From: Candidatus Kerfeldbacteria bacterium | GTDB taxonomy: Bacteria; Patescibacteriota; Patescibacteriia; UBA10025; JAHIVO01 | Direction of reading: 5' to 3' | DNA length: 64,000 nt | Assembly (NCBI GenBank): GCA_016214565.1 | Contig: JACROE010000002.1 | Span: forward strand, 984,007-1,048,006 | Shown: piece after piece, positions 11,949 through 63,204 of the stretch | How positions within the stretch are numbered: position 1 is the stretch's first letter | How the letters are laid out: each line of letters starts with the position of its first letter | Notes under the pieces: generated by a model | What the model was told of the DNA's origin: nothing | Database searches by the model: none | What the model saw: only the letters and a program-made list of their open reading frames with translations | Made by a program: the position numbers and the translations under genes

Positions 11949-12278
11949 TTAAATTAGCACTTGTATTTTATACGTTATGACATCACCCTCACTAAAGTTT
12001 TCCGCTTTCCGTACATCTTTCTTCAGTGGCAGCATATATTGTCCAGCTTTACTTTCTGGAAAAATCGATGTTTTCCACGTCGTTTTACCAATCGTTACTT
12101 TCACGGGCAATGATCCAAATCCACCCGTCAGCCCGTGGTACAGCTTTCTGATTCCCGTCGACTTGTCCTTGGGTAAGCTCACGAAGTGCCAAGCGCCTTC
12201 GCCTTGCCACACCCACACTTTCCCTTTGAATTTATATATTGTGTTTGAAGTCATTAGTGCAGCAATTTCTAATTCCAA
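11949..12278 (-). CDS. DUF1905 domain protein (YdeI-like)
   Basis: GAWHFVSLP...GSLPVKVTIGKTTWKTSIFP...GQYMLPLKKDVRK matches the DUF1905 pattern. The ORF-track start is TTG; the first ATG is at 12254. Confidence 0.6.
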   Translation of the reverse strand: MELEIAALMTSNTIYKFKGKVWVWQGEGAWHFVSLPKDKSTGIRKLYHGLTGGFGSLPVKVTIGKTTWKTSIFPESKAGQYMLPLKKDVRKAENFSEGDVITYKIQVLI

Positions 12279-12407
12279 ATATCTAATTTCTAATCAATGT
12301 TCAAATGTCTAAATCAGAATTTAGTAATTAGAAATTATTAATTATTCATTCTACCAATGTGTAAACAGTAGGGGATGGCATTTTTTCAAAATCAAATAAT
12401 TACTAAT

Positions 12408-13322
12408 TTAATTAAACTTTTTATATTGATTAATTGATTTCTCCCCCATGCAAAGTTCAAGAAAGTATTCCTCAATCACTGAGTTCTCTTTTGAAGTAAA
12501 AATAGTAAATAAATTTTCGTTTCTTTCATCACGAAGAATTTTCAAAATCGATGCCCTTAAAATGTACGTTGCCGTTTTAATATATTCATCAGTTTTTTCA
12601 AGATACTTTGAAACATCATTACCGTGGAGTAAAAAACTTCGGAATGTGTAAAGTTTTTTTACCTCCTTTACTAATTCAATGCGTTTATTTGCGTCTTTTA
12701 TTAATGGATGAAGAAACCAAGCAACTCGGGTAGCAATTTTATTTGAGACTTCAATATTGTCAGATGTATATAAACTCTCTAATGCGGTAACCAGGTTAAT
12801 AATTGAGTCAGTTATCGATGTTGTCCATCTAGAGTGCTCAACAAAGTCAATGGTGTTCCTTAGTCTAGAATACTCTTTCCCGGAGTATAGTTGGCTAACT
12901 TTTTTCCATGTTTTTGAAAGTAAATCTAAATCTCTGTGATTAATGATAGGTTTTGGTTCAGCTACTTTTTCGTGAATATACGGATTTATGCCTTTAGCAA
13001 TTGGAAATGACAAAAATGTATTAGTATTTTTTTCGTATATATACAATCCAGAAATTTTTGCAGTATTTGGGTGTATTATTCTTAATATTGCAATAACCCT
13101 ACCAACATCTTTTAATTCTGAGATAAAATCATTTGGGTCATGGTTCACATATTTACGATGAATTGCAATATTTATATAATTGGTGTCAATGTAATTTGCA
13201 TTTATCATCTTACGCCAGTATTCTTCTTTTGTTGGATTAACAATTAAATTCTCACCAACCTTTGTCGGTAGAGCACTATTATTTATTAACAAGTTTTTGA
13301 TCAGATATATCCTACTTGTCAT
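12408..13322 (-). CDS. Hypothetical protein with a C-terminal HEPN-like domain (Rx4H motif), Abi / ApeA-like candidate
   Basis: Very AT-rich and codon-biased compared with its neighbours. The C-terminal helical region (TALESLYTSDN...KLYTFRSFLLHGND) carries an R-x4-H motif typical of HEPN RNases. Overlaps the recombinase stop by 1 nt. Confidence 0.45.
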   Translation of the reverse strand: MTSRIYLIKNLLINNSALPTKVGENLIVNPTKEEYWRKMINANYIDTNYINIAIHRKYVNHDPNDFISELKDVGRVIAILRIIHPNTAKISGLYIYEKNTNTFLSFPIAKGINPYIHEKVAEPKPIINHRDLDLLSKTWKKVSQLYSGKEYSRLRNTIDFVEHSRWTTSITDSIINLVTALESLYTSDNIEVSNKIATRVAWFLHPLIKDANKRIELVKEVKKLYTFRSFLLHGNDVSKYLEKTDEYIKTATYILRASILKILRDERNENLFTIFTSKENSVIEEYFLELCMGEKSINQYKKFN

Positions 13323-14278
13323 TATTTTTCCAACGGATGATATTTTTTATGCGTCTTTTCGGCGTAACGATCGGAAGCGTTTACGTAGCGGGTAGTGGTA
13401 TCGAGTGACTCATGGCCAAGCAGGATTTGGATAGCGGCTGGGTTGGCACCGGACTCGGCGAGGTATGTGGCGAAGCCATGACGAAGACTATGCGCTGAGG
13501 TGGGCACATTGATCTGCAATGCTTCACGATACTCTTTTATTTTCATCTGGATATAGTCAGGTGAGATACGCGTGTCAGAACCGGACTTGGTATGGCGGCC
13601 GCGGTAGGGGATAAAGAGCGCGGGAAATTTATCATTTCGCGTAGCGAGATATTCTTGGATGTGCCGCTTCCCTCGATCAGTGAGATAGACGAAGCGTTGC
13701 TTGCGTCCTTTTCCTTCAATGAAAATTCTACCCGTGGCATCGATCTGGTTCTTGTTTAAGGATATCAATTCTGAGATACGCATACCAGTGGCAAATAAGA
13801 CCTCAAGGATGGCTCGGTTGCGTAGTGCTACCTTCTTATCCTTCTTCTCAGCAATGGTCGGATATTCGATCAATCGGACAATATCTGCCAATTCTGCTAC
13901 CTGGGGGTGGGTTTTAGCTGTTTTGGTTAATTTCACCATTTGGGGGTTTATGGGGCATTCGTAGTCATTATCGATTAAAAACCTCAAATATGTGCGAAAA
14001 CTGGATAACATTCGATTAATTGAGTAAGAATTGAGCCTTTTAGGGGCTGTTTGGCCACTGGCGGTGTTCCTGTCGCGTGACACTAAATAGGCCTTGTACA
14101 GCTCAATATCGCGCCTCTGGAGGCCTGTGAAGGGCTTGGAGGACTCTTCCTGCAGCCATACCAGGAATACCCCCAAATCCCGTTCATAGTTGTATATGGT
14201 CTTTTCGGAGTAGCTATTGGTCTGGAGGTTCAATAGGAAGTCATCCAGATGGGGTAGTTGGTTCTTTTGTTTGGGCAT
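13322..14278 (-). CDS. Tyrosine site-specific recombinase, XerC/XerD / phage-integrase family
   Basis: N-terminal SAM-like core-binding domain. Catalytic residues: R in ATGMRISEL, HSLRHGFAT (HxxR), and LGHESLDTTTRY (H and the Tyr nucleophile). Confidence 0.85.
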   Translation of the reverse strand: MPKQKNQLPHLDDFLLNLQTNSYSEKTIYNYERDLGVFLVWLQEESSKPFTGLQRRDIELYKAYLVSRDRNTASGQTAPKRLNSYSINRMLSSFRTYLRFLIDNDYECPINPQMVKLTKTAKTHPQVAELADIVRLIEYPTIAEKKDKKVALRNRAILEVLFATGMRISELISLNKNQIDATGRIFIEGKGRKQRFVYLTDRGKRHIQEYLATRNDKFPALFIPYRGRHTKSGSDTRISPDYIQMKIKEYREALQINVPTSAHSLRHGFATYLAESGANPAAIQILLGHESLDTTTRYVNASDRYAEKTHKKYHPLEK

Positions 14279-17068: not shown

Positions 17069-17743
17069 TTATTTTTCCTTTATCGCTTTTGAGTATTCGG
17101 TATGCCAGGTGCAGAAAGGACAATCAGGAGCAGGTTTTGGCATTTTGCCATTCAATACTGATATGGCCTTCTTAAAAGCTTCAAATGAGTGCTGCGGGTC
17201 AGTCTTGAGAGTTTTCAAAGTAATTTCCATGGGGAACCGATTGTGTAGGTCATCCGATTGTGCTGGATAAAAATACAATAAATGGCCAATGCCACTCGAG
17301 GGTCGATTGTTTTTTTCTAACAGAAAAGCGTACGTATCAAGCTGCATTTGATATGCCGGAATCATTGGCCGTTCATTTGGATCAGAACTAGATGTTTTGT
17401 GATCTACAGGCGTGTAGGTACCCTTCTTGGTGACTAAACACTCATCGAGCTTACCCATTAAGCCATAATCCTCATCGTGATGGTAGAAATATACTTCCTG
17501 GAATGGATGCTGGAGTGTGCCATCGACTTTGCCTTCGAGAAGTGGCGGCAATTCGCCAATTGGTCGGTAGAGGTCAAAATATTTTTTTATAATCACGTCA
17601 AACCGGTTTGCCAATCGGGAGACAATCCCCTCTGGTTGGCGCAATTTTTTCTTATACTGAAGCCAAAAACATCGAGGGCATCGGTTAACGGTTTCTAAGC
17701 CAGTTGGTGAAAGCCAGATTTTCTTTTTTTGGGAATACGCCAT
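17069..17743 (-). CDS. Cas4-like PD-(D/E)XK nuclease with an Fe-S-type Cys pattern (DUF83 / RecB-nuclease-like)
   Basis: N-terminal ETVNRCPRCFWLQY, the Cas4 hallmark Y..CPR. Putative catalytic GKLDE...TPVDHK (D...D/ExK). C-terminal CPFCTWH. Four Cys in total. Confidence 0.5.
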   Translation of the reverse strand: MAYSQKKKIWLSPTGLETVNRCPRCFWLQYKKKLRQPEGIVSRLANRFDVIIKKYFDLYRPIGELPPLLEGKVDGTLQHPFQEVYFYHHDEDYGLMGKLDECLVTKKGTYTPVDHKTSSSDPNERPMIPAYQMQLDTYAFLLEKNNRPSSGIGHLLYFYPAQSDDLHNRFPMEITLKTLKTDPQHSFEAFKKAISVLNGKMPKPAPDCPFCTWHTEYSKAIKEK

Positions 17744-37182: not shown

Positions 37183-39138
37183 TTAATCGAAGGTTATTTC
37201 AACCAAACGATCCTGGGACAGAATGGATGAAAATGAAACTACAGTATCGGCTATTATGGTATCAATGTCAAGCCCAGCAGCTTGCTGCGGCGGCTGCTTC
37301 AAATCTATTCGTGCCGACACTGCATGATTTCCGGCTCCTGCTTGCTTCTGAATAAGAAGCTTATAAGAACCTGCGCTCATTTGATCGTAAATTCTTTTGG
37401 GTAAGTGGTATTTATAATGCAGCGTTTTTGATTCACCCGGCTCAATGCAAATAAACGCCCCAAAAGAAGTCTTTTGATACTCTTCAAGTGTTTCAACGCC
37501 ACCCACGTCGTCCATCTTGCAATCAACCATGGTGCCTTCTGATTTCAGTAATGTAGACCCTTCCGGAACATAGACCCGAGTGTACGTTCGATAACGAGTT
37601 GTTTTCCAGGTTATTGTTCCCGTATTCTCATAAGTAATGTTCACATCAGCTATCAAGTTCTCACCATCGCGCTCAACTGAATAGTTAATTGTCCTTCTAA
37701 CCACCGGATCAGTTTTCAAGCTTGCTAAGTTTGCATCAATAACTGACAAATAATCGTGATCAACTTGTTCAATTGCCCCACCCCAATTTTCCTTAAGAAT
37801 CATACTTTGGACGTACTCGTCGTTGGCATATAACAAAATTTGTTTTTCCTTAATATTTTGCTGAAATACTTCCCATAATTCTGGCCAACGACTTTTCGGC
37901 AGCGCGAGTACATCATCAAGGATAATTTTTGATAATACGCCGATTATTTCTTTGCGCTCGGACAATTCTAGACCTTGTCGTAGAAATCCACGTTCTACTT
38001 GATCCTGAAGCTGATCGGTAAAATTTTCAGAGGTAAACGTTAATCCGTTAACGGTTATTTCTCCGGTTAGCCCGAGTAACGACTGGATAAAGGTCGGGGT
38101 TATCGCAACCGTACCATCTAAGTTTTTTTCTGGACCTCGTTCTTCGCGATAAAACCACTGAGCCAATTCACCAGTAGTTGGAAAATCTGGTGACCAACTA
38201 GCCCCTCTTAAAAAAAGCTTTGGGGCGGCATTATAGCGAGCGACCTGCCATGGGGCGTCAACGTCAAGCCATTCTTCAGCTGGCTCATCCAAGTTGTATA
38301 CGTTATCGGTTACAAATGAAGTAATGTCGCCATCCCTAATTTTGAGAATGCCATAGGTTCCAATAAATCCACCAGACGGGGCCAACTCCGCATTATTTTC
38401 CAATAAAAAAAGATACGTTTTAGGTTCTGGATAGCCTGCTATTAAGGGTAAAATTTGACTCACGGATATCGCCTGATCCAAACCTGACTGCAAGAGCGGC
38501 ACCTGTTCTTTAAGTGGGGCAATAACCTCACTTATTTGCCGAATTAAGCCATGGCTGGGAATTTTGTCGACATAGGAAACGGCCTGATCAATAGACACCT
38601 TTGCTTCTTCAAGTTTTGGTTTTGAATTGTATATATCGGCAAGTAATTGATGTGTCTGCTCCTCTGTTAATGTTGCTAAACTAATTTCTTCGTCTTTCGT
38701 AAGTGGGGCGACGATTGACGAGGCTATTGCAGAAACATCATGAACTGACTGGCCAGTAGCTATTCCTACAGAAAATAAATTATCGATTGCCTTAATTTGA
38801 GTTCCTAACCAAGGCGCATGCTGCAGCCAAAGAAATTTTTTAAACGTTTTTTGGGCCGATGTAAAATCATTTATTGCTGCATCAAGGAGAATCTGCGCAC
38901 CACTGAAATCCTGGGCAAGTAATGAATCCTGTGCTTTTAAAAAGGAATCTTTACCAGCCTTGCTCTGAGCCAGAACCTCCTGTGCGGGGGCCATGTATGT
39001 CCACCCAAGTACAATACAAAAAAGCGACAACATAACAATCCCCCCAAAACAATACCACCATACTTTTTTTCGTGTTTTGCGGGGCGGATGATAAATTACT
39101 TTTGGATTTACAAAGTTTCTAATCTTTTTATTTTTCAT
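37183..39138 (-). CDS. DUF4012 domain membrane-anchored protein
   Basis: N-terminal TM, then KTYLFLLENNAELAPSGGFIGTYGILKIRDGDIT. This resembles the DUF4012 core as I recall it (YLvlfqNnaElR.tGGfiGsy). Confidence 0.5.
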   Translation of the reverse strand: MKNKKIRNFVNPKVIYHPPRKTRKKVWWYCFGGIVMLSLFCIVLGWTYMAPAQEVLAQSKAGKDSFLKAQDSLLAQDFSGAQILLDAAINDFTSAQKTFKKFLWLQHAPWLGTQIKAIDNLFSVGIATGQSVHDVSAIASSIVAPLTKDEEISLATLTEEQTHQLLADIYNSKPKLEEAKVSIDQAVSYVDKIPSHGLIRQISEVIAPLKEQVPLLQSGLDQAISVSQILPLIAGYPEPKTYLFLLENNAELAPSGGFIGTYGILKIRDGDITSFVTDNVYNLDEPAEEWLDVDAPWQVARYNAAPKLFLRGASWSPDFPTTGELAQWFYREERGPEKNLDGTVAITPTFIQSLLGLTGEITVNGLTFTSENFTDQLQDQVERGFLRQGLELSERKEIIGVLSKIILDDVLALPKSRWPELWEVFQQNIKEKQILLYANDEYVQSMILKENWGGAIEQVDHDYLSVIDANLASLKTDPVVRRTINYSVERDGENLIADVNITYENTGTITWKTTRYRTYTRVYVPEGSTLLKSEGTMVDCKMDDVGGVETLEEYQKTSFGAFICIEPGESKTLHYKYHLPKRIYDQMSAGSYKLLIQKQAGAGNHAVSARIDLKQPPQQAAGLDIDTIIADTVVSFSSILSQDRLVEITFD

Positions 39139-51431: not shown

Positions 51432-53252
51432 TTAGCCTTTTCCACCTACCGTTGCTTTTATTCTACGAATACCGGCTGAAGAAGATTTTTCTGAGACTAT
51501 TTTGAAAATACCGAGCTCTCCAGTATTAGAAACGTGAGGACCACCGCACAATTCTTTAGAAAAATTGCCAATTGAATACACAGTCACCATGTTTCCATAT
51601 TTTTCCTTAAAGAAGGCAAGCGCTCCGGCTCTTATTGCTTCATCGTACGACATTTCCTTTTTTTCAACTGACAGATTAGCCTGAATCTGCTCATTAACGA
51701 GATCTTCTACTCGCTTCAGTTCGTCAGGAGTCATTTTCGTTGGATGTTCAAAATCAAAGCGAAGCCGTTCGGCATTAATATCAGATCCTTGCTGTCGTAC
51801 GTGAGGTCCGAGAACAGTCCGAAGTGCCTGATGTAGCAAATGCGTTGCTGTGTGCAGCTTAGTCATTTCAACTTTTTGTTCAGGCGTCAGCTCGGAACTA
51901 TTGATGCCGTGCCCGCCAAATTTACTTTGGCTTGCTGCTCTGGATTTTTCCTGATGAACTGCAACCAGTTTATTAAATTCCACTTCGTCAAACTGATAGC
52001 CCTTCCGTTTTAGCCGATCAAGGGATAAGCCGTACGTCGAAAACAACGTAAAAGCTTCCTGGGCACTTAAAGGCACATGAGAAAATGATTGGGATTCCTC
52101 CTGATCACGATATGGAATGCCTTTTAATTTCTGTACAAGCTCGCTTACGTCGAGTTTGAGAACCTTTTCATAGGCAGCACGTTCTTGAGCTAGTGCGGCG
52201 AGAATCTGTTGTTCATTATTCTTCAAATGTGGGTAATCCTCATAATAATTCTTAATTACTTGCGATACAAGTTTTTCCAGGTGGGTTGGTTGATGCAAAT
52301 ATTGGTCAAGTGCTCTCCTGAAAATTCTACGCAAAATATAGCCCTGTTCTTTATTACTAAAACTGATACCGTCAGCAAGTAAAAAAACCGTGCCCTTGAT
52401 ATGGTCGGCCACTATTCGACTGCGCCAAATATCCTCAATGTCAGTCGTTGATCCAAACATCGGATCGCTTCGAACAAGCTCAACCAAAGAATGATTTACG
52501 TCAATATCACTAACGGCTCTTACTCGCTGCATGATCATGGCAAGACGCTCAAAGCCCATACCCGTATCAATACTTTTGGTCTTCAGTTTCTTGATCACGC
52601 CCTGCTCATTCATGTGATATTCAGTAAAAACCAAATTCCATATCTCGATACAAGATCCGTTTGCTGCATTCGGACCATACAAAGCATCAGTTACAGGCAC
52701 ATCCGCCATGTCATAGTGGATTTCCGAGCTCGGGCCGCACGGGCCACTTTTACCCGGAGGTCCCCACCAGTTATCCGCACGCTCAAAACCAACGATGCGT
52801 GATTCATCAACATATTGCTTCCAAATCTTTTTTGACTCAAGATCAGCTGGCACATCAGCATCACCTTTAAAATACGTAATCCAAATGCGTTTTTTATCAA
52901 GCTTTAATTCATCAACTAAAAATTCCCAGGCAAAACGAATAGCCTCCTCTTTAAAGTAGTCATTAATCGAAAAATTACCCAGCATTTCAAAAAAAGTACT
53001 GTGAGTTGCATCCCCAACCGATTCGATATCAGACGTTCGAAAACAGCGCTGGATCGAAGCTAAACGGCAAGCTCCAAAATCAGCATTGGGATCCTTTTCG
53101 CCCATAAAATATGGTTTAAACGGCTGCATACCAGCAGTTGTCAAAAGAACAGATGGATCGTCTTGAGGCCATAGAGATGAAGACTGAACTATACGATGTT
53201 CTTGTTCTTCAAAAAACCTAATGAATTTTTTTTTAATAGCGTGGGACTTCAT
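51432..53252 (-). CDS. alaS: Alanyl-tRNA synthetase, short form (catalytic + editing core, no C-Ala domain)
   Basis: Class II AlaRS N-terminus (LLTTAGMQPFKPYFMG...FRTSDIESVGDATHSTFFEMLGNFS). Editing-domain HxxxH (HTATHLLHQAL) and CGGPHV. Only 606 aa. Confidence 0.85.
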   Translation of the reverse strand: MKSHAIKKKFIRFFEEQEHRIVQSSSLWPQDDPSVLLTTAGMQPFKPYFMGEKDPNADFGACRLASIQRCFRTSDIESVGDATHSTFFEMLGNFSINDYFKEEAIRFAWEFLVDELKLDKKRIWITYFKGDADVPADLESKKIWKQYVDESRIVGFERADNWWGPPGKSGPCGPSSEIHYDMADVPVTDALYGPNAANGSCIEIWNLVFTEYHMNEQGVIKKLKTKSIDTGMGFERLAMIMQRVRAVSDIDVNHSLVELVRSDPMFGSTTDIEDIWRSRIVADHIKGTVFLLADGISFSNKEQGYILRRIFRRALDQYLHQPTHLEKLVSQVIKNYYEDYPHLKNNEQQILAALAQERAAYEKVLKLDVSELVQKLKGIPYRDQEESQSFSHVPLSAQEAFTLFSTYGLSLDRLKRKGYQFDEVEFNKLVAVHQEKSRAASQSKFGGHGINSSELTPEQKVEMTKLHTATHLLHQALRTVLGPHVRQQGSDINAERLRFDFEHPTKMTPDELKRVEDLVNEQIQANLSVEKKEMSYDEAIRAGALAFFKEKYGNMVTVYSIGNFSKELCGGPHVSNTGELGIFKIVSEKSSSAGIRRIKATVGGKG

Positions 53253-53298: not shown

Positions 53299-54393
53299 TT
53301 ATTTTACAATTATTCCGCCACCCAAAAGTCTGCCTCGGCTATAAAGCGCGGCAATTTGACCAGGGCTAACTGCACGCTGCTTTTGTACAAAGTCTAAACG
53401 ATAAAAGTTCCCTTTTTTTCGCAATTTTGCTTTTTGTAATGGCTGACGATATCGAATACGCACCTGACATACGAGTGGAACGTTAGGTATTTTTTCAACC
53501 CAGCTTGAATTTTTAAACACGAGTCGTGTTTGAAATAACGGTTTGTTATCTGATGCTGGGGTAACAACTAATTCATTTTTTTTAATATTTTTTTCTACTA
53601 CATAATATGGGATGCCACCGCCAATACCAATACCATGACGCTGACCAATAGTATAGATACTCAGGCCTTCGTGTTTACCAATAACTGTTCCATTCGTCAT
53701 AACAATATTTCCCGGCTTAGCAGGAATAAATTGTCGAATAAAGTCCTTAAACTTTACTTTTCCAATAAAGCATATTCCTTGACTATCTTTTTTATCATGG
53801 ACGTGTAAATGATTCTTTTTTGCAATGCGTCGAACTTCTGACTTCAATAATGTTCCCAGAGGAAACAAGGAACGCTGCGCCTGTGCTTGCGTAAGAAGGG
53901 CTAAAAAATACGACTGATCTTTCGTATGATCACGAGCTGCGTGAAGCGAAACTATATTTTGACGGGTCGACCGTCTCACATAATGGCCTGTTGCAATATA
54001 ATTTGCGCCGTGAGCAAGCGCATATTTTAAAAAAACTTTGAACTTAATTTCACGGTTACACAACATGTCAGGATTTGGCGTTAATCCAGCTCGGTAGCCC
54101 TTGATCAAATATTCGACTACCTTAGCACGGTACGCATCTTCAAATGTTGCTATCTGATGCGGAATGCCAATTGTTTTGCAAACACGTAAAAAATCTGCAG
54201 CATCTTGTTCCCACGGGCACTCATCAGCTAGTGGATCGGACCAATTTTTCATATAAACGCCGGTAACGTCATATCCTTGCTGCTGCAGTAATAAAGCCGC
54301 AACTGAAGAATCAACTCCGCCGGACATTGCTACGAAAACGCGTTTATGTTTATTATTTACAATACCAGTCATATCAAAAAAGTATACAAACAC
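53299..54393 (-). CDS. mnmA: tRNA 2-thiouridylase MnmA
   Basis: PP-loop VFVAMSGGVDSSVAA, plus the catalytic Cys and C-terminal barrel typical of MnmA. Confidence 0.85.
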   Translation of the reverse strand: MFVYFFDMTGIVNNKHKRVFVAMSGGVDSSVAALLLQQQGYDVTGVYMKNWSDPLADECPWEQDAADFLRVCKTIGIPHQIATFEDAYRAKVVEYLIKGYRAGLTPNPDMLCNREIKFKVFLKYALAHGANYIATGHYVRRSTRQNIVSLHAARDHTKDQSYFLALLTQAQAQRSLFPLGTLLKSEVRRIAKKNHLHVHDKKDSQGICFIGKVKFKDFIRQFIPAKPGNIVMTNGTVIGKHEGLSIYTIGQRHGIGIGGGIPYYVVEKNIKKNELVVTPASDNKPLFQTRLVFKNSSWVEKIPNVPLVCQVRIRYRQPLQKAKLRKKGNFYRLDFVQKQRAVSPGQIAALYSRGRLLGGGIIVK

Positions 54394-54414: not shown

Positions 54415-55722
54415 TTAGTATAGCGCTTCAATAACTTCTCGCAAGTGTTTCAGTCGAGGAGAATAAAACTCAGACTCAGTTATATGTTGCGAGGCAAACA
54501 GCGCGTTCTGGGGCTTGTGTTTGCGTAACCGCTGGTACTTCCGAGGATAATGACGTTCAATGCTACCAAATGGAAGTATAAAAATTCGATCTTTTTTAAG
54601 CTGATCGATTAAGGCGTCTTCAGATTCCATGGCAGACCCCTGAAGATTTTTTTGCACTAAAGCAATTCCGGTATCGTATAAGCCATCGTGGTCAAGTAAA
54701 ACAGCATACGGAACGTCAAAAACTCTTAATAACTCGACGTACAAATCCATGTTGCTTTTACCGTACGTTTGAATAACTTTAATATCTTTATCGCCATGAT
54801 AAAAACGATCAATTAAGCCGCGCATCAAAATATGATCAGAGGGTCCCTCTACCAAAAGGACGCTGTCCGAGAAAAACATTTCCAAATTGTCCGCATTAAG
54901 CTCTTGTCTGAGACGGCTGTAATTAATTCGATGGCCACTAATCCGAGGAGAATGCACGCGCGTAGAAATACCATCACGGGTTACTCGAAAAACGCGGTGT
55001 AAATTAGTTGCCGTAATAAATAATGGTGAATGAGTCGTAATAAATATTTGATCTCCATCGTTTTCCTTTTCGAGGATTGAATAAAGCCGTTTGACTAAAG
55101 CTGGATGCAGATGAATTTCCGGCTCTTCAAGTAATAATATTGTGTATTGAGGATGAAAAAAATACAGTAAAATTGTAAAAATTTGCTGAAACCCGTCACC
55201 AAGCCGTTCAAACGTCCTATCGACTCCCCCTTCGTGAACTACCGTACGACGAAAAAAATCATCCGACAGTTTAATCTTTGGGAAATGCTTTTCTATTGAT
55301 TTTTTGAATTCTCGATAACGATGGGGGTAATCATGTTGAAACTTTTTATAAACATTTTGCAATTCAGATGCTGACACGGGATATACAGCTGAAATACGCT
55401 TAATGTGCTTTTGCATTAGTGAACGAACACGATTAATTGGGAATCGCTTACCATTTAAATTCGCAATAACATTCTGTCCTCGCTGAACAATCTCCAAAGT
55501 TCGTCGTGTTGACCCAAAAACGGAAAAAACAATGCGTAATTGAGTTTGAATGTAATTAAGTCGACCTGGATTAGCTTGATATAACTGACTAATTGCATCA
55601 AGAATATTAGTTTTACCTGAATTATTAGGGCCAATAAAAATATGCATTGAACCGGGATTTGGCAGTGCAAACGGAACTAAAATACTCTTATACTTTTCTA
55701 TACCAATGTCAATTATCCTCAT
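54415..55722 (-). CDS. OLD-family (overcoming lysogenisation defect) ABC-type ATPase + Toprim nuclease
   Basis: Walker A GPNNSGKTN, Walker B/D-loop ILLLEEPEIHLHP, H-loop TTHSP. C-terminal Toprim LLVEGPSDHILM ... LLDHDG (E and DxD). Confidence 0.7.
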   Translation of the reverse strand: MRIIDIGIEKYKSILVPFALPNPGSMHIFIGPNNSGKTNILDAISQLYQANPGRLNYIQTQLRIVFSVFGSTRRTLEIVQRGQNVIANLNGKRFPINRVRSLMQKHIKRISAVYPVSASELQNVYKKFQHDYPHRYREFKKSIEKHFPKIKLSDDFFRRTVVHEGGVDRTFERLGDGFQQIFTILLYFFHPQYTILLLEEPEIHLHPALVKRLYSILEKENDGDQIFITTHSPLFITATNLHRVFRVTRDGISTRVHSPRISGHRINYSRLRQELNADNLEMFFSDSVLLVEGPSDHILMRGLIDRFYHGDKDIKVIQTYGKSNMDLYVELLRVFDVPYAVLLDHDGLYDTGIALVQKNLQGSAMESEDALIDQLKKDRIFILPFGSIERHYPRKYQRLRKHKPQNALFASQHITESEFYSPRLKHLREVIEALY

Positions 55723-55734
55723 CGCCGTAAATTT

Positions 55735-56235
55735 TTATGAAGCCTGGTTATGGTGAATTGATTTATAAAATGTATCAAGCGCGCGCATCTGTGAACGATT
55801 CGGGCATGCACTTGGACGGTGAGCCTGGATATGTCGAACTGCTTGTTGAGGTGTCATACGTCGAGCCAAAATGTAGTATGCGGCTGCTAATGTTGGTGCT
55901 CGACCATTACCTGCATTACAGTGAATATAGCAGTGCATATGGTGTCGAACCATATCTTCGATAAAATGCGAACCAATAATTAACTGAACCTGAGAGGGTG
56001 GGGTAAAATCTGCTGTGGGTAGCCATAAAAATGAAGCGACCCCAGAAGGCTTATCTATTTTTTCCTCCTGCAGATCAATGTCAGCCTTCATACCTAAAGC
56101 AAGCAATTTTTCAAAATGAGCACGTGTGGCAATAGTAGTACCAATGTATACATACGGATCAATTTTTGAAAAATTGAATGGTTCTATACGTACATTTGGG
56201 TACGACAGCGCCGGGATTTCAAAACGTTTAGACAA
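55735..56235 (-). CDS. Dual-specificity (Cys-based) protein phosphatase domain protein
   Basis: CX5R P-loop HCNAGNGRAPT, with an upstream Asp-containing loop. Confidence 0.7.
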   Translation of the reverse strand: MSKRFEIPALSYPNVRIEPFNFSKIDPYVYIGTTIATRAHFEKLLALGMKADIDLQEEKIDKPSGVASFLWLPTADFTPPSQVQLIIGSHFIEDMVRHHMHCYIHCNAGNGRAPTLAAAYYILARRMTPQQAVRHIQAHRPSACPNRSQMRALDTFYKSIHHNQAS

Positions 56236-56248
56236 GAACGTGTGGTTA

Positions 56249-57943
56249 TTATTTAGCTATGTGGACTGATTTACCGGGTTGCAATTTGTGAGGATTGTGA
56301 CTTTTTGTTTGTGTGGGCATACTCGCAGAGCTCTGAATAGGTTTGATTACTGGCCGCGATGGAGAAGGGCGGACAATCTTGGGCTCAACCGTGAGCCGCG
56401 GTTTACCTGAAAATGGCGCTGGTTTACGTGCTAATGCCTGGCTTAATGAAATGGTTGTAGTGGCTGGCTCGATCTCTACGTCAGTCAAAGATTTAAAGTC
56501 AACAGCTGGTTTTGCCTGGACAGCAGGCTTCGGAACAAATGGTTTATTCACTCTCGGGGTCATGCGTTGTTCTGAAGGCACAATCTGATGTTTGCGCTTA
56601 TAAGAACCTTCATCACCTGCAATTGCGCGATTATCAGCGTCAGCCGATGCACGATACATATCCTGAACCCCACTCCAGCGCAATATTCGATCCTCCACAT
56701 CCGCTCGTGCCTGGCTATACCGCTCCCGAGATACTCTAATAACTTTATCCCTATTATTCGTTTGCCCTTCCACTGGAGGTAGGGTCGTAGCAGAAAAAGG
56801 AGCTGAAGCGACACCATCAATCATTAGTTTTAAGTACACATCATATTTTGTCAGATTTACCAAATCCTCTTCAATAAAGGTTGGGAAAAACTCCTTTGCA
56901 AGAAATTCGGAATCGGCTGCTCCTACGCGAAAGCACATGATGGTTCCCACGTTGCCAAATACTGCTGCTCTCACCTCTTCGTCAAGTTGTTCAATGTACT
57001 GATGAGCAATAATTAAGTTAAGACGATATTTACGAGCTTCGGACAAAATACTGGCAAAACTTTCTGTAGCAAAGTTCTGAAACTCATCAACATACAAATA
57101 AAAGTCATTACGCTCTTTTTCGGGGATATCTACTCGGCTCATAGCTGCCAACTGCAAACGTGTAATCATCATTGCCCCGAGCAAAGCCGAATTATCTTCA
57201 CCGATTCTACCTTTAGAAAGGTTAAGAAGCAGAATTTTATTTTGGTCCATCAGCTCACGCAAATTAATTGTACTTTTTGATTGACCAACGATATTTCGAA
57301 TAACTGAGCTAGACAGAAACTGTCCAACTTTATTTTGAATAGGGGCAATAGCTTCATTTCGAAAACGATCATTATATGAGGCGTACTCATCGATCCAAAA
57401 ACTTTTGACAATCGGATCGGTGATGCGGTCAACTACTTTCTTTCTATAGTTTTTATCAACCAAAATGCGCGCTATACCAAGCATAGTTGATCCAGGATAC
57501 TCTAGAAGCGCAAGAATACAATTATTTAATATGTATTCCATTCGAGCGCTCCAGACCCCCTCCCATATTTTCGTAAATACACCCATCAAACCAGAGGCTA
57601 CCAAATGACGCTGATCTGGATTGACACTTTCGAGCACATTAAAGCCTATCGGAAACTCCAGGTCGGCCGGATCAAAATACACTACATCATTAATCCGATA
57701 CGAAGGAATAAAATCAAGCACTTTTTCTATCAAGTCACCGTGAGGATCAACGAGTGCTAAGCCCTTCCCCGACCGAATATCCGATATGACCATGTTTTCA
57801 ATCACGGTGGTCTTGCCCATGCCAGTTTTCCCAATCAAATACATATGACGACGCCGATCGTCAGTCTTGATGCCAAACGTTCGATTGAGGTTACGAAAGT
57901 TTGTTTTGGCAAAAAATGTTATTTCGTTTTGGTCAGCAGGCAT
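56249..57943 (-). CDS. Soluble type-IV coupling protein-like ATPase (VirD4/TraD/TraG family, TraG-D_C-like) with a Pro/Ala-rich C-terminal tail
   Basis: Walker A YLIGKTGMGKTT...LALVDPHGD. Walker B-to-motif-C region LYVDEFQNFATE...LNLIIAHQYIEQLD. No N-terminal TM. Last roughly 130 aa are low-complexity (KPFVPKPAVQAKPAV...). Confidence 0.6.
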   Translation of the reverse strand: MPADQNEITFFAKTNFRNLNRTFGIKTDDRRRHMYLIGKTGMGKTTVIENMVISDIRSGKGLALVDPHGDLIEKVLDFIPSYRINDVVYFDPADLEFPIGFNVLESVNPDQRHLVASGLMGVFTKIWEGVWSARMEYILNNCILALLEYPGSTMLGIARILVDKNYRKKVVDRITDPIVKSFWIDEYASYNDRFRNEAIAPIQNKVGQFLSSSVIRNIVGQSKSTINLRELMDQNKILLLNLSKGRIGEDNSALLGAMMITRLQLAAMSRVDIPEKERNDFYLYVDEFQNFATESFASILSEARKYRLNLIIAHQYIEQLDEEVRAAVFGNVGTIMCFRVGAADSEFLAKEFFPTFIEEDLVNLTKYDVYLKLMIDGVASAPFSATTLPPVEGQTNNRDKVIRVSRERYSQARADVEDRILRWSGVQDMYRASADADNRAIAGDEGSYKRKHQIVPSEQRMTPRVNKPFVPKPAVQAKPAVDFKSLTDVEIEPATTTISLSQALARKPAPFSGKPRLTVEPKIVRPSPSRPVIKPIQSSASMPTQTKSHNPHKLQPGKSVHIAK

Positions 57944-57946
57944 ACA

Positions 57947-59344
57947 TTATGCAGGTAAGTTAGAGGGTGGTGGGGCCTTTTCTTCGACTGCCATACTAGG
58001 TCGAGCAGACTGCGTAGATACAAGTGATTCAACAGGGAGAGAAATAGGCGGCTGTCCTTTCTTAGCGTCAACATGCTGCACGGCGGATACTTTCACATCC
58101 TTAACCGGGAAGTGCCAAAGACTTGCCAACTCCTCTGTGTTTAACATATATCCATGGTATCCACGTTCAATGCTACGCTTTCGATACGCCCTTAATACAC
58201 GCCGCTTACGGCCGATCTCACGCCACTTAAAGTAATCAACGCTTGTTTTAGTCTTTTTTTGAACGTCAAATCCGTTCAAATTTTGAGTATTAAATTGAAA
58301 GATTGCGCCATGAATCGCATTTACTCCTTTATCCTTATTCAGCTTACCCTTCGGCGCTCCATAAATCATGCGCAGTTTACTGCGAAATCCAAGCTTTGAA
58401 ATTTTAAATCCAATCGCTGACACGATCTCCTGCTCTTCAGGTGATAAGTGCTGCATCAAAGATGGAGGATCATGAGAATCCTTTTTACCCGCCTCGCCCA
58501 TTTCTGTGGTAGGCAAAAAAGAAGCTGTAAACGACTCGGTAAGTCCTTTACCTACCTCACGAGGAAAATACATTAAATCCACACCATGCTTTTCGGATTT
58601 GCGGCCAATCAATTTATTTATTTCATGCAAACCTTTTTCTCGCCAGTGATTCCCCTCTGGCTCAATCAATAACTGTAGCCACATGTGTTCACCTGGACCC
58701 ATCCGACTTAATATTTCCATCAGTGAAGCTAGTGGATCAAGTAAACGCTGAGATAGTGAATGCTCAAACATGGGGTAGGTACGGATCGGATAGCAGTCCT
58801 TATTTGTCATTTTGTACTCAGTCCCCCAAATATCCCACTCTGAATTTTCTAATTCCATAGGTTTAGGCAGCATGTCTACATAGTCTTCTACTTCAGTTAT
58901 TTCTGCGTCAGGGTACTGAGCATACATCGCTGCTTCTATCAAATCGCGGAATTTACTAGGGGTGTAGATGAGAAACTGAATGTATCCTTCAATACTAACT
59001 ATTTCTAAACTAAGTGAGTACTGCTGGTATCCTTCAATATATCGCTCAACCATGTTGCCCCGCTTTTTTATGGCATATAAATGGGCAAATATTTGTTCAA
59101 CGGCTTTAGGGCTTAACTCATTCATTTGTGGAATATCTATTGCCAAAAGAGAATAATCAAGCTCTTCCTCAAATTTAATACGGACATGCTCAAGTCGCCA
59201 TACCCAGAGCCCCCAAAGCAGTAAACAAATAAATACAATCCAGCCACCGTTCGCAAATATTAAAAACATTGCGCTGAAAGGGTTATCAGCGCTCGGTAAA
59301 CCATTGACGATTGCAGTTGGATCAAATACAAGGAACTGAAACAT
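57947..59344 (-). CDS. Hypothetical N-terminally membrane-anchored protein (operon partner of the coupling ATPase)
   Basis: Hydrophobic N-terminal 50 aa (1-2 TM), then an approximately 400-aa soluble domain with no recognisable family. Overlaps the downstream ATPase gene by 4 nt. Confidence 0.45.
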   Translation of the reverse strand: MFQFLVFDPTAIVNGLPSADNPFSAMFLIFANGGWIVFICLLLWGLWVWRLEHVRIKFEEELDYSLLAIDIPQMNELSPKAVEQIFAHLYAIKKRGNMVERYIEGYQQYSLSLEIVSIEGYIQFLIYTPSKFRDLIEAAMYAQYPDAEITEVEDYVDMLPKPMELENSEWDIWGTEYKMTNKDCYPIRTYPMFEHSLSQRLLDPLASLMEILSRMGPGEHMWLQLLIEPEGNHWREKGLHEINKLIGRKSEKHGVDLMYFPREVGKGLTESFTASFLPTTEMGEAGKKDSHDPPSLMQHLSPEEQEIVSAIGFKISKLGFRSKLRMIYGAPKGKLNKDKGVNAIHGAIFQFNTQNLNGFDVQKKTKTSVDYFKWREIGRKRRVLRAYRKRSIERGYHGYMLNTEELASLWHFPVKDVKVSAVQHVDAKKGQPPISLPVESLVSTQSARPSMAVEEKAPPPSNLPA

Positions 59345-59367
59345 ACGAGGTTGGAATGGATGATGGC

Positions 59368-60486
59368 CTATGCAGCAACGGGTGAATAGGTTCCATCGGG
59401 TAGTTTAGTAAATTTTGACTTATCGGTCAGCGCTAGGTGTATGGTGTTCTTTTTTACCATACGCTGTTTTAAAACAAGCTGAACTAGCTCATCTCGACTC
59501 AAAGGCCGACCGGCATCACGAAGAATTTCTTGCAAAACCGCTGCAACCACACCAGGCTTATACCCCCATTCCTTTAACGCGTAGATACCCCGCCCAACCA
59601 GCACATAGTGATCATTGAGAATAAGCTCATTATGTACTGTTGGTGGGTAAGCACGACGATTGTCAAATTTCGTATCATTAATTACTTTAGTAATTTCCGT
59701 AAAATGCATCGGCTTACCGGCTTTTTTTAGTACGAGATATATTTTGTCGTTCATGCGTTTTGGAACAATGCTGCCCCAGTCGCTTATGCCGTATTCATCA
59801 AAAGGATTTTTCGAAATTCTTTGACCAACTTGAACATATGCGATAATTGCCTCATCAGTTAGTTGTCCCTGATTTTGATTATACACAGTCGACTTTTTTA
59901 TTTCTGCTAAAAGCTCAGTAGCTGAAAGTGGTTTACCAATGCGTGTAATAATTGAAAGCGATTCATTAATTATGTCTCGCAATAAATGCATCGGTGCATG
60001 CACTGTTCGCCATGATTGACGAAATTCTGCCGATTCTTTGATCAGTTTAAAAGTTTCGTCAAGCAATTCAGATATAATAAAGAGTAAATTATTACGATGA
60101 ACATCGGTCTCCCCAACCACTTGAAGTAATTGCTGCAGCAATAAATTTTCTGGCATTATTCCGCCATGTTGGTCAAGCACTGAACTTACGGCGCTGCGTA
60201 TGTGAGTTATAATTCCAGCAAACTCTTTCGACTTTCTAATTTTAGTAATGGCGGTGTTTTCAATTTGCCGCACACGTTCGCGAGTTACTTTGTATGTAGC
60301 GCCAATCTCCTCTAGTGTTTCATGGGGTTTACCACTTAAACCATATCGACGTCTAAGAACGTCGTCTTCTCGAGGAGTAAGCGACTTAAATAACTGTGAT
60401 ACGACATCGGTGGGGTTAAATTGTTCGATGTCGGTTGATTGTTTACTGGAAATGACCCGATCAAGGATAGAGTGTTGATCGTCCAT
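59368..60486 (-). CDS. Two-HTH protein: N-terminal sigma70 region-4-like HTH, C-terminal HARE-HTH-like domain
   Basis: LTPREDDVLRRRYGLSGKPHETLEEIGATYKVTRERVRQIENTAITKIRK is sigma70 region 4.2. C-terminal KPMHFTEITKVI...YVLVGRGIYALKEWGY resembles HARE-HTH (GRGxYxL). Confidence 0.5.
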   Translation of the reverse strand: MDDQHSILDRVISSKQSTDIEQFNPTDVVSQLFKSLTPREDDVLRRRYGLSGKPHETLEEIGATYKVTRERVRQIENTAITKIRKSKEFAGIITHIRSAVSSVLDQHGGIMPENLLLQQLLQVVGETDVHRNNLLFIISELLDETFKLIKESAEFRQSWRTVHAPMHLLRDIINESLSIITRIGKPLSATELLAEIKKSTVYNQNQGQLTDEAIIAYVQVGQRISKNPFDEYGISDWGSIVPKRMNDKIYLVLKKAGKPMHFTEITKVINDTKFDNRRAYPPTVHNELILNDHYVLVGRGIYALKEWGYKPGVVAAVLQEILRDAGRPLSRDELVQLVLKQRMVKKNTIHLALTDKSKFTKLPDGTYSPVAA

Positions 60487-60641
60487 AATAGCGGAAAGTT
60501 AATGACCAAAATACTAATACACCTATAATATAGCATACTTTTAAAGATGTGTCAAGATTTTCCTGCTATTTCACCAGAATATCAATTTCAATGTCAATAC
60601 AAAAAGAGAGTCTCAATCAAAGACGCTAGGTAAGGTATAGT

Positions 60642-61538
60642 TTATGATCGGCGACGGAATTTGTACCAATCTACGAGAAATGGACTGCCAATAAATATTG
60701 ACGAATAAGTACCAACAATGATACCGAGAATTAAAGCTAGTATAAAGAAACGAATTGAATCTCCACCAAAAAAATATAAGGCAACAAGTACCAATAATGT
60801 GGTTAATGACGTATTCAGTGAACGGACGAGTGTTTGATTAACACTTAAATTTACAATTTCAGCAAATGGTCTATGACCATGGGTTTTTAAGTTTTCTCTC
60901 GTCCTATCATACACGACTATTGAATCGTGAACCGAAAAGCCCAATACGGTTAGTACGGCTGTGATAAACAAAATATCAATTTCAACATTGAAAAATTTCC
61001 CCAGAAATGCAAATAACCCCAGCACAATAATTACGTCATGAAAAAGTGCAATTAAAACTCCAAATCCGTACATCCATGAACTTACCATTTTATTTCCTGA
61101 CTTTCGAAAAGCAAAAGTAATGTACAAAAGTATAAAGGAAAGTACAAGAATTATAGCCATTCCTGCTTTATCACGAAGCTCCTTGCCAATCGTCGGTCCA
61201 ATCGATTCAAAAGATTGAGCAGTTGTACCGGAAAATTTTTCACTCAAAGAATCGAGTACCCGCTGATATTCCTCCTGACTTAATTCTTTCATGCGTATAC
61301 TTGCATCATGAGTAGCCAGCGGTTGAACTTGGATACCACCTAGTCCGAGCGGTGCCAATTGGTCTAAAATTTCTTGGGGCTGTGGACGCACGTCAGAAAA
61401 GCTCACCCGAATAAGGCTTCCACCGGTAAAATCAATACCCAGCTTAAGCCCTCCAATCGCAATCATAACGATGCTTGAAACAATAAGAACAGCGGAGACA
61501 CCGTACCACCAAATTCTTTTACCAATTATGTTATACAT
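60642..61538 (-). CDS. secF: Protein translocase subunit SecF
   Basis: GIDFTGGSLI and the six-TM SecF topology. Confidence 0.85.
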   Translation of the reverse strand: MYNIIGKRIWWYGVSAVLIVSSIVMIAIGGLKLGIDFTGGSLIRVSFSDVRPQPQEILDQLAPLGLGGIQVQPLATHDASIRMKELSQEEYQRVLDSLSEKFSGTTAQSFESIGPTIGKELRDKAGMAIILVLSFILLYITFAFRKSGNKMVSSWMYGFGVLIALFHDVIIVLGLFAFLGKFFNVEIDILFITAVLTVLGFSVHDSIVVYDRTRENLKTHGHRPFAEIVNLSVNQTLVRSLNTSLTTLLVLVALYFFGGDSIRFFILALILGIIVGTYSSIFIGSPFLVDWYKFRRRS

Positions 61539-61551
61539 ACATTAATTGGGG

Positions 61552-63204
61552 CTAATTATGTTTGATATTAATAAATAACTTTGGATGACGCTCAAACCAC
61601 GGCCCACTGATAACACGCAAAAAAGTATGGCTTACAGTAATAGCCGAAAACATACTAATCAGAACTCCCAAGCCTAATGTAATAGCAAAACCCTGCACCA
61701 CGCTAGTCCCAAACCAACCCAATATCGCACAAGTGATCAATGTTGATATATTCGAATCTCGAATTGATGGCCAAGCACGTGCGAAACCTGCCTCAAGAGC
61801 TCCAAACAATCCGCGGCTATTACGAAGCTCCTCACGACTCCGTTCAAAAATAAGCACATTTGCGTCTACGGCCATACCTACCGACAAAATAAAACCAGCC
61901 ACACCCGCTAAAGTTAATGTAATGGGTATTAATTTAAATAACGCTAAGGTTATGAGGGCATAAATTACTAAGGCAATAGAGGCGATTAGGCCAGGTAATC
62001 TATAGTAAGCAATCATGAAAACCACAACTAATAAAATACCTGCGATTCCGGCAAAGAAACTTTTTTCTACGGACTGAGTACCAAGCGTAGCTCCAACTTG
62101 TGACTGAGAAACAAGTGCAATGGGAACCGGCAACGCGCCAGCATTAAGCCGCTGAGCAAGTAAACGCGAATCTTCAAGGGTAAAGTCGCCCGTTATTACG
62201 GCGCTACCACCTGATATCGCCTGATTGACTCGGGGTAATGAAATCGGCGATCCATCAAGAAAAATTCCAACAATTTGGTTAACATTTCGCGCTGTAATGT
62301 CCTCAAAAAGTTTAGCACCCTCGCTATCAAACTCTAAGCTCACTTGGGGTTGATTAGTGGTTTGATCAAAAGTAACGATCGCACGATCTAAGTTCTTTCC
62401 TGATAACTCTGTATTTGCCCACTCAACGCTCCCCTCAACAGATTGTTTAGCGAATAAAATGTGGCTAGCACGAGCCTCATCATTGCGCGCATCAGTTTTC
62501 TTAATAATATGATAACCGAATTCAGATTCTACAATGTCCGGGTATACTTGACCGACCTCTAGTTTATCGAAAACAACGTCAGCAAATTCAGCGACCATAA
62601 CCTCTCGTGTAAAAAAATCTAGGTCGCCGCCACGTTTTTCGCCCGTTTCCTGGTCCGTGTTTCCCGGATCCTGAGAATATTGGTTTGCTAATGCAGCAAA
62701 ATCAGCATCGGGCTTAAGCGCATCAGCAAGCACGGATTTCGCCTGTTCAAAAGCGGCGGCATTGGACGCTTCGGCTTGCGCCTTCTCTTCAGATGTTAAT
62801 TCTTTTGTCTTTTGTTCACGAAACTCGAGTAATGGCGTTTCACCAATAGTGTCAATCGCTTGCTGAACATCGTGTATACCGGCTAACTCAACAATCACTC
62901 GCCACTGATCGCCGGATTGATTAGTCTGTACCACTGGCTCAGAAACACCGAGCGCGTTTACCCGGCGTTCAACGACATCACGAACACCATCAAGTGCTGA
63001 CACCTGCTCGGTCGTAGCAATTGCTGAGGTATCTGCATTATAAACCAATTGCGTTCCACCCTGGAGATCAAGGCCCAGATGAACTTTTACCTCTCGAAAA
63101 TAGTTGCCGATAGAAATATCAGGTCCATTCGGATAGCTCGCCAAGCCAGCCAATATAGAAATCGCAATAATACTGATAAAACTTAGCCAAATTCGTTTAC
63201 GCAT
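61552..63204 (-). CDS. secD: Protein translocase subunit SecD with a parvulin-like insertion in the periplasmic P1 domain
   Basis: LGLDLQGGTQLVY and a conserved P1 base and TM2-6. Residues about 138-252 read GGDLDFF...FGYHIIKKTD...ASHILF, which are parvulin PPIase motifs. Confidence 0.85.
   Translation of the reverse strand: MRKRIWLSFISIIAISILAGLASYPNGPDISIGNYFREVKVHLGLDLQGGTQLVYNADTSAIATTEQVSALDGVRDVVERRVNALGVSEPVVQTNQSGDQWRVIVELAGIHDVQQAIDTIGETPLLEFREQKTKELTSEEKAQAEASNAAAFEQAKSVLADALKPDADFAALANQYSQDPGNTDQETGEKRGGDLDFFTREVMVAEFADVVFDKLEVGQVYPDIVESEFGYHIIKKTDARNDEARASHILFAKQSVEGSVEWANTELSGKNLDRAIVTFDQTTNQPQVSLEFDSEGAKLFEDITARNVNQIVGIFLDGSPISLPRVNQAISGGSAVITGDFTLEDSRLLAQRLNAGALPVPIALVSQSQVGATLGTQSVEKSFFAGIAGILLVVVFMIAYYRLPGLIASIALVIYALITLALFKLIPITLTLAGVAGFILSVGMAVDANVLIFERSREELRNSRGLFGALEAGFARAWPSIRDSNISTLITCAILGWFGTSVVQGFAITLGLGVLISMFSAITVSHTFLRVISGPWFERHPKLFINIKHN

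Follow-up and report, generated by a model that had tools for sequence, protein, structure and literature searches.

The five genes at positions 54415-60486 of a 64-kb window (the whole stretch of DNA analysed here) from a metagenome-assembled genome of Candidatus Kerfeldbacteria form, in all likelihood, a composite locus: a conserved cassette of three genes, which encode a two-domain helix-turn-helix (HTH) protein, a membrane protein of the DUF8128 family and a VirD4-type ATPase, together with two independent accessory genes for a cysteine phosphatase and an OLD-family nuclease. Patescibacteria as a whole conserve the HTH-DUF8128-ATPase cassette, in most cases downstream of secDF and with a conserved promoter in front. 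The phosphatase and OLD genes show no linkage to each other or to the cassette, and they are probably co-transcribed here only through tight packing. Patescibacteria, which account for a large share of bacterial diversity, are ultra-small and depend on host cells. An earlier note on this DNA had described five minus-strand genes, and all five open reading frames (ORFs) were confirmed at the coordinates it gave. Its proposal that OLD, phosphatase and coupling ATPase make up a new defence system is not supported, as the genes separate in relatives; its alternative, a DNA-translocation module, fairly describes only the core of three genes and does not extend to the phosphatase or OLD.

The distinction between core and accessory genes comes from gene neighbourhoods in 80 loci of GTDB species representatives (these and other related loci are numbered with an L below), which were the best-scoring ones, are mutually related, and span Kerfeld-, Kuenen-, Buchanan-, Uhr-, Magasanik-, Falkow-, Portnoy- and Doudnabacteria, among others. 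The ATPase gene lies directly downstream of the DUF8128 gene, on the same strand, in 51 of 70 loci; the HTH gene is directly upstream of DUF8128 in 39 of 75; and in 47 of 69 secF is encoded on the same strand no more than 2.5 kb upstream of DUF8128. The phosphatase and OLD genes are both present in only 3 of 63 loci, which are the three closest relatives; L009-L011, the nearest to the window, repeat its order of five genes. At 61% identity of DUF8128, in L001, the order is secDF-HTH-DUF8128-ATPase, then three LiaF-like genes, then phosphatase-OLD-mnmA-alaS. At 45% identity, in L003, it is secDF-HTH-DUF8128-ATPase-mnmA-alaS, with neither phosphatase nor OLD; both are likewise absent in L012-L016, and mnmA follows the ATPase after 91-205 nt in L003, L012 and L014. 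The wider context has secA and secDF upstream and mnmA, alaS and ribosomal genes downstream. What the neighbourhoods show is thus a core of three genes, with a five-gene block only in the closest relatives. The earlier note had let its one-module reading stand or fall with synteny in related genomes, and the reading fails because the five genes are not syntenic there.

Core, phosphatase and OLD come apart in several ways (L003, L092, L172, L173, L174, L089-L091 and L005-L008). OLD occurs without the phosphatase in L092, L172, L173 and L005-L008: in L092 and L173 it is kept before mnmA with LiaF and ABM genes in the phosphatase's place, and neither tblastn nor a six-frame HMM search found a degraded phosphatase in L092 (3550-4260). 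In L174 the phosphatase, whose start abuts the ATPase stop, is separated from OLD-mnmA by two opposite-strand genes. The OLD of L172, 54% identical, lies in unrelated surroundings, more distant homologues (about 40% identity) either come after a DUF6938 gene or are on their own, and none of the 80 metagenomic OLD loci listed (0/80) has this phosphatase within 6 kb of OLD. Homologues of the phosphatase (54%, 44% and 42% identity) are surrounded by housekeeping genes, with no OLD gene, and the first of them (L089) adjoins msrA. The interval between ATPase and mnmA, which houses both accessory genes in the window and its Kerfeldbacteria-like clade, measures between 91 nt and 5.7 kb in the 23 loci compared, and in other lineages it holds genes for a glycosyltransferase, CysRS, RuBisCO, UvrD, a nucleoside phosphorylase and similar genes. 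The slot was considered as a defence island and rejected as such, its contents elsewhere being ordinary metabolic genes; it is an ordinary variable synteny gap.

Two side observations concern this slot. LiaF/LiaI-like membrane proteins recur in it (L001 11120-12984, L092 2814-3299), their genes replacing or preceding the phosphatase in close relatives, and a small ABM-type protein is found in L092 and L173. L173, with OLD only, and L089, with the phosphatase only, are contigs _0 and _5 of Logan assembly SRR21359533 and may come from one genome in which the two genes are unlinked; their GC contents are 0.38 and 0.42, and their tetranucleotide correlation is r = 0.91.

Spacing and strand, which had led the earlier note to see a unit, are less informative than they appear. 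The gaps it gave as 23, -4, 13 and 12 nt are right for the first, third and fourth; the second is +3 nt, as the letters of the DUF8128-ATPase junction read TAA-TGT-ATG, and the same gap appears in independent gene calls on another assembly. From window position 17069 to 63932, 44 ORFs have a length of 120 aa or more, and all of them lie consecutively on the minus strand, with a median gap of 8 nt and gaps of 25 nt or less in 33 of 43 cases. Tight same-strand packing is therefore the norm here and no evidence of a unit. Nor do spacing and strand delimit the five genes, because the series continues: mnmA starts 21 nt after the OLD gene, and alaS 46 nt after mnmA.

A promoter-like site marks the upstream end more clearly. 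At 60527-60555 on the minus strand, in the 155-nt spacer between secF and the HTH gene and 40 nt upstream of the HTH start codon, lies TTGACA-17-TG-n-TATATT, a near-consensus site of the extended -10 sigma-70 type; with 11 of 12 matches it was the best of 30 sites in a 13-kb scan. An equivalent site (at least 10 of 12 matches, at most 160 nt upstream of the HTH gene) occurs in 31 of 38 related loci, compared with 4.6% of 760 control windows. A transcription unit probably starts at the HTH gene, and the earlier claim that the five genes are co-transcribed holds as probable.

Within the cassette, the DUF8128 protein and the ATPase would be, to judge from their sequences, two halves of one membrane-anchored machine. 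The DUF8128 gene (57947-59344, minus strand) encodes 465 aa. The protein is 100% identical to HZC01_05180, and its precomputed Pfam annotation, PF26449/DUF8128, names a family that the earlier note had left unnamed. The membrane anchor it predicted corresponds to a single hydrophobic segment at 22-54, near the N-terminus; the other four proteins have none. Searches with 25 family members found no match in local Pfam, NCBIfam or PADLOC up to an E-value of 10, a PDB sequence search with the DUF8128 profile gave nothing meaningful, and a literature search for DUF8128 returned no match. The likeness of the protein is to VirB4/TrwK of the R388 type IV secretion system (T4SS; PDB 7O42, 8RTB, 8RTD), and it points to the N-terminal domain of VirB4 because DUF8128 gave no P-loop ATPase match and has no Walker motif. 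At 9-10% identity this is a similarity of fold: a VirB4-type N-terminal domain does precede an ATPase domain, and no Pfam VirB4 family matched at the sequence level. VirB4 depends on VirB3 for its place at the membrane, whereas DUF8128 carries its own transmembrane (TM) helix, and the true VirB4 genes of Patescibacteria are reported to be separate and located elsewhere in the genomes (PMC12102498). EccE of mycobacterial type VII secretion (PDB 6LAR, 7B9F) scored much more weakly, has no sequence similarity and belongs to a different system.

Gene fusions connect this domain to the ATPase. With the ATPase as query, 1.84 billion representatives were searched exhaustively by HMMER; this gave 23,994 relatives, and 64 of the best 150 are single polypeptides of about 520-1,230 aa with DUF8128 at the N-terminus and the ATPase at the C-terminus. 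The DUF8128 profile matches the N-termini of these fusions with E-values down to 1e-118, and one fused cluster has 23 members from many independent assemblies. The family phrog_5156 (824 positions) spans both in the same order, DUF8128 at 53-360 and the ATPase at 408-806. A C-terminal PPxNLP motif of DUF8128 (window 57947-57975) is present in 23 of 25 proteins; in the fusions it is followed by about 10 residues and then by the N-terminus of the ATPase (TNFR..FGIK..DRRRH), so that the fusion junction is collinear with the arrangement of stop, 3 nt and start in the window. PPxNLP may be a linker or a docking peptide. The architecture is therefore a TM helix, a cytoplasmic VirB4-NTD-like alpha/beta domain (NTD, N-terminal domain), a nucleotide-binding domain (NBD) like that of type IV coupling proteins (T4CPs), and a variable tail. 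The link to phrog_5156 does not imply a phage origin, because the GenBank phage collection has only weak ATPase matches, at 20-25% identity, and none to DUF8128.

The ATPase gene (56249-57943, minus strand) encodes 564 aa and matches TrwB_AAD_bind, TraG-D_C and DUF87 in Pfam. Walker A (GKTGMGKT, 38-45) and Walker B (VDEF, 285-288) are intact, and the residues from about 430 to 564 form a disordered tail in which Pro, Lys and Ser abound. No hydrophobic segment was found, in line with the soluble VirD4/TraD-like ATPase of the earlier note. Its P-loop NBD is homologous to TrwB, with an all-alpha insertion; the only sequence-level matches in the PDB are TrwB and DotL, and VirD4 resembles this half in sequence more closely than VirB4 does. 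Across the lineages and classes of the 80-locus set the ATPase core keeps 52-74% identity (median 68%), and in the same loci the median for DUF8128 is 39% and alaS and mnmA are mostly at about 40-50%. The ATPase is under unusually strong, housekeeping-like constraint. Canonical T4CPs (VirD4/TrwB of R388, Cag-beta, DotL) have a TM anchor in the same chain, which the window ATPase does not; in its family the anchor would be a VirB4-NTD-like protein, encoded apart or fused, that has no equivalent in canonical T4CPs. It differs from them also in its housekeeping-like conservation and in its surroundings, with no relaxase or other T4SS gene among the neighbours or the 10 largest window ORFs. Another difference lies in the tail: 16 of 28 orthologues end in a zinc-ribbon-like motif, CxxCGK-x8-F.PD..RPvyCxxC (for example L017, L022, L027, L031 and L033), for which a role in binding nucleic acid is possible. 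The tail of the window protein (56249-56650) has no zinc ribbon and is Cys-free.

The ATPase family has been noticed before. A survey of Patescibacteria (Quinonero-Coronel et al., 2025; PMC12102498) found 5,713 VirD4-type T4CP homologues in 2,918 of 3,035 genomes; just 148 of the homologues lie near virB4. These are probably the same family as the window ATPase, given the profile type and the domain layout. The same authors report that the T4CP homologue of Southlakia is non-essential and suggest that the gene was maybe exapted for other functions; the essential T4SS cluster of Southlakia was described as having no recognisable coupling protein (Wang et al., 2023; PMC10633639). In that genome SEML1_0293 is a non-essential protein of 921 aa, with the ATPase at about 361-795 and TrwB_AAD_bind at 402-719; it is a single protein, while its counterpart in the window is split in two. 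Its Tn-seq reads dropped about 4-fold between T0 and T2. It adjoins SEML1_0294, which has Sigma70_r4 at 27-72 and HARE-HTH at 225-283 and was scored as essential at each of the three Tn-seq time points (PMC10633639, Table S1). Both are core, Patescibacteria-enriched families (PMC10633639). The portions of the two papers available to us (PMC12102498, PMC10633639) make no mention of DUF8128 or a VirB4-NTD-like module, of split and fused forms, or of the neighbourhood with HTH gene and secDF.

The first gene of the cassette (59368-60486, minus strand) encodes the HTH protein, 372 aa, in which Pfam confirms the two domains read earlier from the sequence: Sigma70_r4 at 33-85 (7.8e-15) and HARE-HTH at 249-277 (4.8e-10), the C-terminal half being HARE-HTH/winged-helix. 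It aligns with region 4 of SigA/RpoD (profile E about 1e-19). Sigma regions 1.2, 2 and 3 were not found; the matches to RpoD/SigA models and to sigma chains in the PDB are limited to region 4, and all sigma models score far under their cut-offs (RpoD, for example, 67.7 against 555 bits). A sigma factor was accordingly rejected, region 4 being present without region 2. The HARE-HTH part resembles RNA polymerase delta (TIGR04567, 7e-7, below cut-off), but delta has an acidic C-terminal tail, which by inspection the HTH protein lacks, and the HTH protein has additional winged helices. It is probably an RNA-polymerase-associated or global transcription factor and not a dedicated regulator. A role beyond regulation of the ATPase is suggested because its Southlakia counterpart is essential and the ATPase homologue there is dispensable.

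The phosphatase gene (55735-56235, minus strand, TTG start) is accessory and lies in the ATPase-mnmA slot. Its product of 166 aa matches Pfam DSPc (3.4e-14) and has an intact HCxxGxxR P-loop and WLPTxD acid loop, as expected of the dual-specificity cysteine phosphatase described earlier; H105, C106, G109, G111, R112 and D76 are invariant in 24 homologues. PADLOC gave no match. The best PDB match of the family profile is PTPMT1 (3RGO, 1.7e-18), the mitochondrial phosphatidylglycerophosphate phosphatase (3RGO/3RGQ), which shares the CX5R P-loop and the acid loop. Unlike PTPMT1, the window protein is a bacterial, cytoplasmic, predicted enzyme with no TM segment.

The OLD gene (54415-55722, minus strand), accessory in the same slot and immediately upstream of mnmA, encodes 435 aa. 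The NCBI record has 410 aa from Met26, but the longer ORF is the better model because the 25 upstream residues (window 55648-55722) are conserved in all homologues. Pfam domains and catalytic motifs bear out the OLD-family ATPase/Toprim assignment: AAA_21 (2.3e-28), AAA_15 (1.6e-19) and OLD-like_TOPRIM (9.6e-15, at 283-346). Walker A (G31, N33, N34, G36, K37) and the Walker B/H-loop EEPExHLHP (E200, P201, E202, H204, L205, H206, P207) are invariant in 27 homologues, as are the Toprim residues E292, D296, D344 and D346 (catalytic Glu, DxD). The PADLOC model Old matches at 2.1e-34, GajA and AriA models also match, and in the PDB the top match is 6P74, a Class 1 OLD from Thermus. By the class definitions of PMC10568477, the sequence fits a single-gene (Class-1-type) nuclease because it has no helicase, reverse-transcriptase or split-nuclease partner; no partner is conserved at all, the neighbours being phosphatase, ABM, DUF6938, Gmad2 or none. 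Three multi-component systems were considered and rejected. Gabija (GajA + GajB) does not fit, as the flanks are phosphatase and mnmA and no helicase stands beside OLD in the related loci examined; PARIS or split OLD (AriA + AriB) does not fit, as ATPase and Toprim are both within one 435-aa ORF; and for a retron-associated (Class 3) OLD there is no reverse-transcriptase domain in the neighbours and no Rfam match in the window.

Class 1 OLD proteins (Thermus scotoductus 6P74, P2 Old, Vibrio cholerae OLD) share the one-chain ATPase and Toprim and the catalytic motifs. The window protein differs in being about 90-150 aa shorter (435 against 528 aa of the 6P74 chain; P2 Old has 586 aa), and its family in being confined to Patescibacteria-type contigs and to fixed chromosomal positions. 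A metagenome scan with the single OLD protein gave no match; an alignment-based rescan found 4 close loci among the 80 OLD loci listed. On Komeilibacteria-type contigs (L005 5676-8281; L006 and L007 5655-8350), OLD at about 40% identity always comes after a DUF6938 gene (about 445 aa, stop/start overlap) and before an EamA transporter gene. DUF6938-OLD-EamA is a second conserved OLD neighbourhood; the idea that DUF6938 is a disguised phosphatase was rejected.

How the locus as a whole should be read can now be considered. All five genes could form one defence or translocation system, with OLD as effector, the phosphatase as regulator, the ATPase and membrane protein as sensor or translocator, and the HTH protein in control. 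They lie on one strand behind one strong promoter, with gaps of 3-23 nt, their order is repeated in L009-L011, and PADLOC matches OLD (Old, GajA, AriA) and, weakly, the HTH protein and the ATPase (MzaA, mad8/HerA). But the weak matches cover generic domains only, and neither the phosphatase nor DUF8128 has any; genes are packed this tightly on one strand throughout the genome; the full set is seen in only 3 of 63 species-representative loci; and the three-gene core occurs in many Patescibacteria lineages without OLD or phosphatase, each of which also occurs away from it. Synteny has already largely refuted such a system, and we regard it as very improbable. The proposal that the ATPase and the genes around it are what is left of a decaying integrated conjugative element fares even worse. 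The VirD4/TraD-type homology of the ATPase speaks for it, as does the lack of other T4SS genes beside the locus or among the 10 largest window ORFs. A degenerate remnant, one of the possibilities raised in the earlier note, is however incompatible with an ATPase core so strongly constrained that its median identity across classes exceeds that of the flanking alaS and mnmA; ORFs and Walker motifs are intact, GC at 54-60 kb (0.40-0.43) is not deviant, no integrase, relaxase or repeats were noticed, and the family is reported from nearly all Patescibacteria genomes (PMC12102498). Neither do the genes belong to a known transfer module of an integrative element, since the context is secDF on one side and mnmA-alaS on the other and the chromosomal position after secDF is kept in 47 of 69 loci. 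The remnant can be dismissed almost entirely.

The remaining alternatives concern OLD. Phosphatase and OLD could be a clade-specific two-gene defence module, with the nuclease regulated by the phosphatase, inserted as a unit between the ATPase and mnmA: they are 12-57 nt apart or abutting in the window and in L001, L009, L010 and L011, the pair stays whole despite the LiaF-like insertion in L001, both are missing together in L003 and L012-L016, and single-gene OLDs are reported to be able to defend against phage (PMC12392090). Set against this are the intact OLD at the same position in L092 and L173, with no phosphatase and no detectable remnant of one, the gene pair between the two in L174, the lone OLD of L172 and the phosphatase by msrA without OLD, and the metagenomic OLD loci listed, none of 80 of which has this phosphatase. 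The adjacency, being limited to one clade and one locus, represents a single evolutionary event, and the closest solved relative of the phosphatase is a lipid phosphatase; an inserted defence pair is thus improbable. OLD could instead be a vertically inherited housekeeping nickase/ATPase. There is a precedent in archaeal Cran1, an essential OLD that is inherited vertically and has a part in the cell cycle (PMC12796447), and homologues with 47% identity or more are mostly encoded on the same contigs as the matching DUF8128 orthologues and are fixed before mnmA, while the group at about 40% identity keeps its own fixed context between DUF6938 and EamA. But OLD is absent from 60 of 63 loci, including many sister lineages, and relocated in L172; for these reasons accessory fits it better than essential, and the housekeeping explanation seems unlikely.

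Several points weigh against the composite reading that we prefer. The phosphatase and OLD are, after all, adjacent and tightly spaced in the window and in L009-L011 and together in L001, and a functional link limited to this clade has a small chance of being real. The ATPase gene is not adjacent to DUF8128 in 19 of 70 loci, and in 3 of those 19 it is 5-9 kb away on the other strand; other genes downstream of DUF8128 in the 19 loci were considered as alternative ATPase partners and rejected (glycosyltransferases, primase/RpoD, MetRS). The 80 loci are the top-scoring ones and no random sample, and they are interrelated. We infer the physical complex of DUF8128 and ATPase from their fusions and fold, and the link to SEML1_0293/0294 from architecture and from adjacency given in the supplement of PMC10633639.

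The flanking genes are all on the minus strand and give context only. Upstream, outside the module, secF (60642-61538) and secD (61552-63204) form the conserved flank; downstream are mnmA (53299-54393) and alaS (51432-53252). Scans of the whole 64-kb window for tRNA genes and Rfam families gave no match. The lowest-GC stretch of the window is at 12001-14000 (0.374, against about 0.42-0.46 in neighbouring 2-kb bins). Large DUF4012 proteins are encoded at 37183-39138 of the window and, together with a GT4 glycosyltransferase, downstream of DUF8128 in Falkowbacteria-type loci (L075 12601-15129); these occurrences probably reflect cell-envelope biosynthesis.

How the cassette might work can be outlined by analogy. 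It would be transcribed from the strong conserved promoter; DUF8128 would place its one N-terminal helix in the membrane and present a cytoplasmic VirB4-NTD-like platform, on which the soluble P-loop motor could dock. Judging from TrwB, HerA and FtsK, the motor would probably be an ATP-driven hexamer that moves a polymer at the membrane, with DNA as the likeliest substrate. We lean slightly towards an accessory or independent role rather than one of feeding the Patescibacteria T4SS. More speculatively, DUF8128 and ATPase could be a Patescibacteria-specific chimeric translocase, VirB4-NTD joined to VirD4-NBD, with a function of its own and usually beside an essential sigma-4/HARE-HTH protein: either the 'missing' T4SS coupling ATPase or a T4SS-independent membrane DNA motor, with the phosphatase perhaps modulating OLD in one Kerfeldbacteria clade. 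We hold this larger picture only tentatively, as possible rather than probable.

The five-gene observation is real, then, and its distinctiveness was overestimated in the earlier note. It carries a caution for the discovery of defence systems: in the tightly packed, single-strand genomes of the candidate phyla radiation (CPR), adjacency and short gaps by themselves do not define a system. The ATPase family itself is already known, having been recorded as an orphan T4CP homologue (PMC12102498). What is new is modest: the identification of DUF8128 as a membrane module resembling the VirB4 NTD, either encoded apart from the ATPase or fused to it, the constraint on the ATPase, and the conserved promoter, HTH and secDF neighbourhood. 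The T4SS of Patescibacteria is reported to be essential in the one genetically tractable species (PMC10633639, PMC12102498). With DUF8128, the orphan VirD4-type ATPase of nearly every Patescibacteria genome gains a partner module, and the constrained pair, beside a gene whose Southlakia counterpart (by architecture) is essential, offers a concrete unit for studies of DNA and protein movement in these bacteria.

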